A stretch of DNA of 64,000 bases from Octopus vulgaris (Eukaryota): the NCBI GenBank assembly GCA_951406725.2, contig OX597835.1, forward strand, positions 46,686,001-46,750,000, given 5' to 3'. Shown here piece after piece: positions 40,249-42,403 of this stretch. The translations under genes were made by a program, and so were the position numbers. The notes below the pieces were generated by a model. It was not told the DNA's origin and did not search any database. It saw only the letters and a program-made list of their open reading frames with translations. Within the stretch, counting starts at the first letter, position 1. Each line of letters starts with the position of its first letter.

Positions 40249-41628
40249 GTACATATTTACATTACATACAAATACACACATACATATATAAATATAAATG
40301 TGTGTGTGTGCCCACGCGCGTGTGTACGTGTGTACGTGCCTCTGTGTGTGTGTGTGTGTGTGTGTGTACTAGCGGGACGTGGATATTTCTCAGAATTAAT
40401 AGTGAACCTATTGGGTTATTTCTGAAAACTTTATCCCACAAAACCTGAAAGCGTAGCCTGTGTTGTGTCTGTATTAAAAGATAATCTCTCATCTGCTAAT
40501 CATTAAAAAAGTAAAGGAAATTGGAATACGATGATTACTTAATGCACTTTATATATACACTTTACATACTTTATGCACAATTTTACGGGTGTTAATACAC
40601 TCTCCGTCTTTCTCTCTCACTTTTCACCTTACTCTCTTTTTCTCACTCCTTTTTCTTTTGCTCTTCCCCTATCCCTTCAGCTAATCATGTGAAAGCGTTA
40701 CAGACGGGCTAAGTAACGGACGAAAAAAACAACTTAATTATAAAGAAAATAACGCAGTTCACTCTCAGCTCCATCAATGAAATGCTGATAATCTCAAGAA
40801 CCATGAGTTCACCAAAGTTGACTTACCATCAAGGAAAAAGACAGGTCTACTGTTTTTGGGGGAGATAAAGGAACAATCGTGGACACGAGTGTGTTAGTGT
40901 GATTGTTGAAAGAAGTAAACAGCGACGACCTACACGGCCACAAATGATTTGTTAACGTCCTTAGGCTTTTCTTCGTCTTTTTGTGATTTCATTCAAGCAT
41001 AATAAACTGATTGACACAAAAACTTTTACGCTTGGATAGATATAGCCTCTATTCTTTATCATATGACGATATATATGAGAGGGGGGGGGGTTAATAGATT
41101 ACTAACGCATACTAAACAGTTAATGGAGTTGCCACATCAAAATGGCTGGCGAATGTTAGACTGCCAGCAGGGGGAGCGAAAGGAGTTCGCTCCCCCTGCT
41201 AGCAGTGTATTATATATAAAGGATGCCGAAAGTTGCATCGAAAACCAGATGGCGGAGAATCTGCCTGGGGTTAAACTAGTAGTAACATTCACCTGCCACT
41301 TGGACGTGTCAACTAGATTTACTATACATGTATGTATATATATATATATATATATATATATATATATATATATATATATATATATATATATATATATATT
41401 TATATATAACAATAATAAATCCCTGAACAAGATATAAACAGTAACTGCTCTATAACGTAAAGGGGATCAGCCATCTGAATGTGGCTAGGGACAGGGCGGG
41501 GTGGTGGGGGTGTTACTGATGCTTTTAGCCCCAGGCGATCATCGACGTCACCAGAAGGACCGATACCATATCGGTGTCCTTGTTTGCCTGTAAAGGGAGA
41601 TCATCCTCCCTCGAAGATACGAATACTA

Positions 41629-41671
41629 CATACGGACTGGTTTCGAGGTCATTGCCTCTTATCAACGCATG
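41629..41671 (-). ncRNA. variant hammerhead ribozyme motif (U3-A8 core), inverted-arm copy
   Basis: Minus strand CATGCG-TTGATAA-GAGG(CAATGA)CCTC-GAAA-CCAG-TC-CGTATG. Confidence 0.75.
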
Positions 41672-41776
41672 GTAAGCACCGTTCCTCGATGAAGGATTCC
41701 CTCTACAGGCAACATATATAAGGTTTTTCACAGTAACCACCGTCACTGATGTAGAAAAACCGTCAACGGTGCTTAC

Positions 41777-41819
41777 CATGCGTTGATAAGAGGCAATGAC
41801 CTCGAAACCGGTCCGTATG
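41777..41819 (+). ncRNA. variant hammerhead ribozyme motif (U3-A8 core)
   Basis: CATGCG-TTGATAA-GAGG(CAATGA)CCTC-GAAA-CCGG-TC-CGTATG; palindromic tetraloop CCGG; predicted cleavage after 41813. Confidence 0.82.
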
Positions 41820-42403
41820 TAGTATTCGTATCTTCGAGGGAGGATGATCTCCCTTTACATGCAAACAAGGACACCGATATGGTGTCGGTCCTTCTGGTGA
41901 CGTCGATGATCGCCTGGAGCTAAAAGCATCAGTAACACCCCCACCACCCCGCCCTGTCCCTAGCCACATTCAGATGGCTGATCCCTCTTACGTTATATAT
42001 ATATATATATATATATATATATATATATATATATATATATATATATATATATATATATATATATATATATATATATATATATATATATATATATATATAT
42101 ATATATATATATATATATATATATATTTGGGCAAGTGTCTTCTGCTATAGCCCCGGCGCGACCAATGCCTTGTGAGTGGGTTTGATAGACGGAAACTGAA
42201 AGAAGGTCGTCGTATATATACATAAATACATGAATATATATATATATATATATATATATATATATATATATATATATATATATATATATATATATATATA
42301 TATATATATATATATATATATATATATATATATATATATATATATATATATATATATATATATATATATATATATATATATATATATATATATATATATA
42401 TAT

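Follow-up and report, generated by a model that had tools for sequence, protein, structure and literature searches.

The window analysed here, 64,000 nucleotides of animal-like DNA with many microsatellites and with interspersed repeats that we take to resemble octopus SINEs, contains at positions 41408-41997 two copies of a non-coding repeat of 361 nt with a hammerhead motif, the first nearly complete, the second inverted and shortened. We read this locus, with a probability of about 0.7, as copies of a non-LTR retrozyme whose insertion was likely the work of a Penelope-like element (PLE) and its enzymes. The palindrome formed by the two copies would then be a by-product of insertion, and the locus is probably a dead-end copy. 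A retrozyme-sized unit with the full insertion signature of a PLE here adjoins an apparently young autonomous PLE of like layout; the question of how retrozymes move in animals is left open in PMC7229834 and 10.64898/2026.07.22.740005.

An inverted-repeat search delimited two arms of 233 nt each, at 41451-41683 and 41765-41997, which are 97% complementary and lie 81 nt apart. They are mismatched at 6 of the 233 positions (41461, 41462, 41530, 41564, 41588 and 41638), in agreement with the preliminary description of a palindrome of about 550 bp with few substitutions and a spacer of about 80 nt. The start of the element, previously placed at 41451, is in fact at 41408: a 43-nt tail (41408-41450, minus strand), a 3' extension of the left copy that has no counterpart in the right arm, had been overlooked. 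In contigs of other copies this tail runs directly into the arm. Nor are the 81 nt between the arms (41684-41764, minus strand) a spacer or neutral loop, since contigs that run from the arm into them, with records covering for instance 41626-41740 and 41669-41764, assign them to the left copy as its 5' part. Tail, left arm and this 5' part make up a near-complete monomer on the minus strand (41408-41764; 357 of 361 nt). The right arm, on the plus strand, is an inverted 5'-truncated copy lacking both the first 81 nt of the unit and the tail, and it ends in TATA merging into a (TA)n run. The copies meet at an inversion junction that is itself a short palindrome with 5-bp arms and a 2-nt centre (41759-41770), and both ends of the element lie in (TA)n, at 41335-41407 on the left, the likely target site, and at 41998-42127 on the right. 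Two other long inverted repeats were observed in the window, at 17001-18863 (outer arms of 174 nt, 99% alike) and at 59368-60027 (265 nt, 83%).

The extent of the repeat unit was derived from public contigs aligned to 41407-41782 at 80% likeness and drawn from four runs out of 24 listed (1066, 109, 497 and 457 contigs per run, under three species labels). The assignment of these runs to DNA or RNA is a guess, including the label 'RNA' for X3, and by that guess one of the joint-bearing runs is DNA; runs marked 'RNA?' and small shares were not counted as evidence for expression, and contig depth was not used as copy number. In three of the four runs (X3, X7 and X10) contigs return from 41758-41764 to 41408 with 4-10 letters in between, joining the tail head to tail to 41763/41764. 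The period was 361 nt in 8 of 8 joint rows, which comprise several junction variants; no joint row was listed in X1, the run with most contigs. These joints indicate that 41408-41764, read on the minus strand, represents 357 of the 361 nt of a head-to-tail unit. The contigs are short and no listed piece spans a whole unit; the joints imply tandems or circles. The unit is non-coding, with no stop-free stretch longer than 93 codons, has a GC content below 50% (46.8%) and is present in many copies, none of them as a direct repeat of the element within the window. At most 4 in 100 of the aligned contigs continue into unlike sequence, and one X10 loose-end row continues into TA repeats. No contig covers 41771-41782 in any of the four runs, a coverage hole which proves nothing in such data, and no strand-change joint was listed in them. 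The inversion thus looks specific to the 41408-41997 locus, a conclusion that the contigs do not independently confirm.

Contig depth was much higher over the 3' part of the unit than at the hammerhead. Loose ends at 41448, 41469, 41541 and 41555-41560 point to sister families whose likeness to the unit is confined to the tail or to its 3' 70-90 nt; beyond the point of divergence, one X3 contig continues for 241 nt. One of these sister families could be an autonomous partner, and their loose-end motifs had no convincing copy elsewhere in the window. A 58-nt piece at 24147-24199 is 72% like the 3' part of the unit, a likeness reached by 0 of 1000 shuffles. It lies inside a repeat, 24068-24464, which we presume to be Helitron-like; the piece is perhaps a captured fragment, and some of the very high depth at 41472-41550 may be due to it. 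Pattern scans gave 0 matches in viral contigs and 0 and 0 in metagenome contigs.

A strict scan for type I hammerheads on both strands of the whole 64 kb returned two motifs in total, one per arm and reading outward. One lies on the plus strand at 41777-41819 (U3 at 41783, A8 at 41788, predicted cut after C17 at 41813) and the other on the minus strand at 41629-41671 (U3 at 41665, A8 at 41660, predicted cut after C17 at 41635). In both, stem I is 6 bp long, the core reads UUGAUAA, and a stem II of 4 bp closed by a 6-nt loop is followed by GAA and by the A15.1-U16.1 pair with C17; the type I layout is complete, with three helices round the core, open at stem I, and with G12-A13-A14, A15.1-U16.1 and H17 in place. 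The Watson-Crick 3-8 pair is U3-A8 in both copies. The earlier claims of a hammerhead motif in each arm, with a compensatory U3-A8 pair and in a non-coding mobile family, are supported. Helix III is ACCGGU, a palindrome, in the right copy and ACCAGU, not a palindrome, in the left one. With relaxed criteria the window yielded 14 candidates, among which the two arm motifs scored 10.7 and 9.7; in 20 block-shuffled windows, matches scoring at least 9 averaged 0.05, and no match scoring at least 8 had a Watson-Crick 3-8 pair. Rfam reported no hammerhead in 41420-42000 at E values up to 10, which reflects a library criterion and not a mechanistic one; over the whole window, microsatellite-driven microRNA matches were the sole kind among the best 150 of 239.

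The U3-A8 core, which had been taken as surprising, is already known, as are hammerhead pairs on opposite strands. Natural U3-A8 covariation was reported in 2011 (PMC3088659), and a 2014 paper counted about 1,300 matches with this pair in Schistosoma PLEs and also described motifs paired across opposite strands at distances of 100-700 bp (PMC4209133). The octopus motif shares the compensatory 3-8 change with both sets of cases. The Schistosoma motifs described in PMC4209133 are minimal, with a helix II of 7-8 bp, a helix I of 4-5 bp and an extra base after A9, whereas the octopus motif lacks that base, has canonical helices of 6 and 4 bp and carries a stem I that is extended over a long distance. 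The family offers a natural U3-A8 hammerhead with canonical helices as a candidate for assay. Searches of the literature on octopus hammerheads, retrozymes and inverted Penelope copies found nothing on the U3-A8 family by title or abstract; supplements may list it.

The preliminary description had also counted three 3-8 pairings in this one window. All three occur: the G3-C8 motif at 24758 was confirmed, with stem I starting at 24758, G3 at 24765 and a score of 12.6, and canonical C3-G8 cores were found at 28709 (minus), 29595 (plus) and 34241 (plus). They belong, however, to three unrelated families and not to one covarying family. Indirect support for such selection came from the variants of the U3-A8 family, of which 40 of 51 were listed, unphased and with relatives less than 80% alike left out of the alignment. 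Among these 40, the only core position that varies is N7 (41661), at 47, 57, 70 and 75% of depth. N7 is a known free position of the hammerhead core. None of the 40 variants affects U3 or A8, whose variation among copies had been named as a refuting observation. Taken together, the variants lend moderate support to selection on the hammerhead core in this family. From the loose ends found at 41640, in 7 contigs of X1, 2 of X3 and 1 of X10, a helix III of 8 nt can be deduced that is still palindromic.

Folding predictions place the hammerhead of the sense RNA at the tip of a 43-pair stem I (41584-41712, minus strand), a rod in which stem I is extended by pairing of the 81-nt segment with the arm downstream of the cut site. 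The rod had a z score of -7.18, with 0 of 200 shuffles as good, and the antisense strand one of -4.29; the match between segment and arm was equalled by 3 of 2000 shuffles. For the whole monomer, the sense fold gave z scores of -4.3 (linear) and -3.5 (circular) and the antisense fold -1.0 and -1.4, with 40 shuffles each. The 20 variant rows within the rod comprise 3 at unpaired positions, 6 that keep pairing, 4 that amount to two two-sided changes and 7 that break a pair without a listed partner. For the two-sided change at 41619/41682 the shares of the two sides agree in three of the four runs (38/33, 66/71 and 57/48%) and stand at 91/66% in X1; for the other, at 41585/41711, they are discordant. 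In the full unit the active fold is predicted to exceed the ensemble energy by 2.0 kcal/mol; in the right copy alone, the one earlier put forward for assay, its predicted cost is 4.4 kcal/mol, and this copy is missing the 5' half of that extended stem. In RNA read through the palindrome on either strand, the predicted cost rises to 74-77 kcal/mol, so that the two motifs cannot work as a dimer in cis. The helix III self-duplex is predicted at -9.7 kcal/mol for the right copy and +0.4 for the left one, and the mixed left-right duplex at -3.5. The weakness of the mixed duplex and the cost of the read-through fold indicate that the motifs are not a working pair. The notion of a functional twin is not supported: the motifs lie on opposite strands, read-through RNA would sequester them, and the unit is the 361-nt head-to-tail monomer.

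The sequence features of this monomer agree with those of metazoan non-LTR retrozymes (PMC7229834; 10.64898/2026.07.22.740005). Retrozyme membership is suggested by a head-to-tail non-coding unit of 361 nt, within the range of 150-450 bp, in many copies; further likenesses are a GC content below 50%, the presence in each unit of a single type I hammerhead whose helix III is short and palindromic, a self-paired RNA and co-occurrence with PLEs. Mussel retrozymes measure about 350-390 bp (PMC7229834). The octopus locus differs from metazoan retrozymes in its U3-A8 core and in consisting of a monomer plus an inverted truncated copy instead of a tandem. For coral, mussel and axolotl retrozymes, dimeric hammerhead cutting and ligation into circles have been shown (PMC7229834); for the U3-A8 unit both steps are putative. 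A word search of PMC7229834 turned up no mention of octopus or cephalopods, nor the word 'inverted'. Animal retrozymes have been argued to be non-autonomous PLE derivatives, with the mechanism left open (10.64898/2026.07.22.740005).

The marks of a PLE-type insertion are all present at the locus: an inverted 5'-truncated copy next to the 5' end, a 43-nt tail at one end, and (TA)n at both ends. PLE insertions typically combine a 5'-truncated copy, inverted at the 5' end, with a tail of 30-40 bp that only one end carries (PMC8557442), and palindromes at the inverted junction have been described (PMC3846280); the palindrome is routine for PLE insertions. Like the insertions of endonuclease-bearing PLEs treated in these two papers and in PMC11167929, the octopus locus shows a head-to-head inverted 5'-truncated copy, a one-end tail, a junction palindrome, a (TA)n target and a start of reverse transcription downstream of an uncut hammerhead. 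Unlike them, it has no ORF for a reverse transcriptase (RT) or GIY-YIG endonuclease, its tail is 43 nt long against the published 30-40, and its long copy spans almost exactly one unit. A microsatellite (TA)n target is known for the Hydra and Naiad clades of PLEs. A PLE protein assayed in vitro was seen to nick AT-rich DNA, to extend both of its strands and to use uncut RNA; the tail was explained by two internal RT start sites that delimit it, and hammerhead cleavage was dispensable for insertion (PMC11167929). Eight of nine Xenopus retrozyme dimers did not cleave (10.64898/2026.07.22.740005).

On the retrozyme reading, tandem copies elsewhere would be transcribed, their hammerheads would dimerise by way of the palindromic helix III and cleave, and ligation would turn the resulting monomers into circles. 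A PLE endonuclease would nick (TA)n, and the reverse transcriptase, starting from the tail end, would copy 357 of the 361 nt of an RNA that is uncut or circular. The same molecule would then be copied back from the junction to the start of the tail, the TATA pairing with the other end of the target. The arms share alleles at more than 10 family-variable sites and differ at one site (41461) where both letters are common, which favours derivation of both arms from one template molecule, by copy-back or two-strand priming, followed by decay; the argument is weakened by linked subfamily haplotypes. Five of the six arm differences can be classed: that at 41564 is private to the left arm, three right-arm letters are absent from the family listing, and 41461 is the common polymorphism. 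Two further proposals were discarded: direct fold-back through complementarity of the cDNA ends, since the ends share the same 5 nt and not complementary ones, and a short AUG frame running into the tail as the start of a PLE ORF, since a family loose end brings a stop. A sigma-70 promoter scan was set aside as irrelevant to an animal locus.

Since the long copy crosses an intact cut site, its template was either uncut or religated. The copy falls 4 nt short of a full unit, and a random stop within 5 nt of that point would be expected in about 5 of 361 cases. In this single case, the position of the stop fits a monomeric circle and also a linear RNA with a fixed start. We therefore propose only tentatively, and at distinctly less than even odds, that a PLE enzyme left the locus as its direct footprint when it reverse-transcribed a retrozyme RNA in the form of a monomeric circle, from the PLE-type tail through the religated cut site to a stop 4 nt before its own start. 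If this is true and many copies stop at the same place, they would provide genomic evidence for animal retrozymes moving through circles with PLE machinery, a step that is merely proposed in PMC7229834 (2020) and 10.64898/2026.07.22.740005 (2026).

A different origin of the unit has to be weighed, in which it is the pseudo-LTR (pLTR) of an autonomous PLE, the palindrome consists of two 5'-truncated stumps and the joints come from tandem pLTRs. Most PLE insertions are indeed 5'-truncated and U3-A8 occurs in PLE pLTRs (PMC4209133); depth over the 3' part of the unit, far above that at the hammerhead, and the divergence of sister families at 41448, 41541 and 41556 would also be understood. Against this, the tail returns straight to the unit's own 5' end, in three runs and with a constant period of 361 nt, few contigs enter unlike sequence (4 in 100 at most), and the unit has no long open frame. 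We consider this origin unlikely, while noting that retrozymes are reported to derive from pLTRs (10.64898/2026.07.22.740005), so that it grades into the retrozyme reading.

Still less probable is that a solo monomer folded back, after insertion or during assembly, to create the inversion, a scenario silent on the insertion enzyme. The junction without a contig in all four runs and the apparent origin of both arms from one molecule would fit it, and the position of the junction at a 5-nt repeat would fit a central deletion in a once perfect palindrome; yet the inversion stops exactly at the border between unit and (TA)n without taking in any flank, there are six differences between the arms, and two other families in the window have the same layout. 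That the palindrome itself is functional, its hammerheads cooperating (for example as a dimer of divergent transcripts) or the whole moving as a fixed 550-bp unit, we regard as highly improbable: both motifs have an intact core and divergent transcripts could meet in trans, but the opposite strands, the cost of the active fold in read-through RNA, the weak left-right duplex of helix III, the junction found in no contig and the lack of any listed strand-change joint all argue against it.

Regarding the retrozyme reading, a candidate source of the mobilising enzyme lies in the same window. The element at 28596-34481 is a PLE with the RT motifs RWK, DKT and CxCX5C and a GIY-YIG ORF, and its RT-like Atlas neighbours score 0.94-0.98. 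Its RT ORF of 801 aa contains an asparagine-rich insert and gave no match in Pfam; the GIY-YIG part lies in another frame (32187-32744). The three C3-G8 hammerhead cores of this element have a very long stem II. Its inverted copy differs at 1 position in 646 nt, its tail, of about 125 nt, is found on one side only, and it ends in (TA)n; the element fits a young member of the (TA)n-targeting Hydra clade. When the U3-A8 unit was compared with the pLTR and tail of this element, 693 of 1000 shuffles were as good, as were 52 of 200 for its body and 412 of 1000 in the comparison with the G3-C8 element. In these comparisons, made from the U3-A8 unit, the elements of the three families share no detectable sequence, and no match ties the unit to the element at 28596-34481.

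The G3-C8 element, at about 24560-24886, is likewise palindromic, with copies set head to head, a tail on one side and TA at its ends; its left copy is cut off inside the core. Its motif is of type I, with an extra base after A9, a 7-bp stem I and a palindromic helix III, and its predicted active fold lies 1.7 kcal/mol above the minimum. No natural G3-C8 hammerhead was found in the literature by title or abstract, although supplements may list such cores; documentation may be sparser for a natural G3-C8 family than for U3-A8. At 42825 (plus) and 43138 (minus), two hammerhead-like motifs with a C3-U8 mismatch have the same palindromic helix III and face each other across a (TA)n run; they are possibly decayed copies of a further family.
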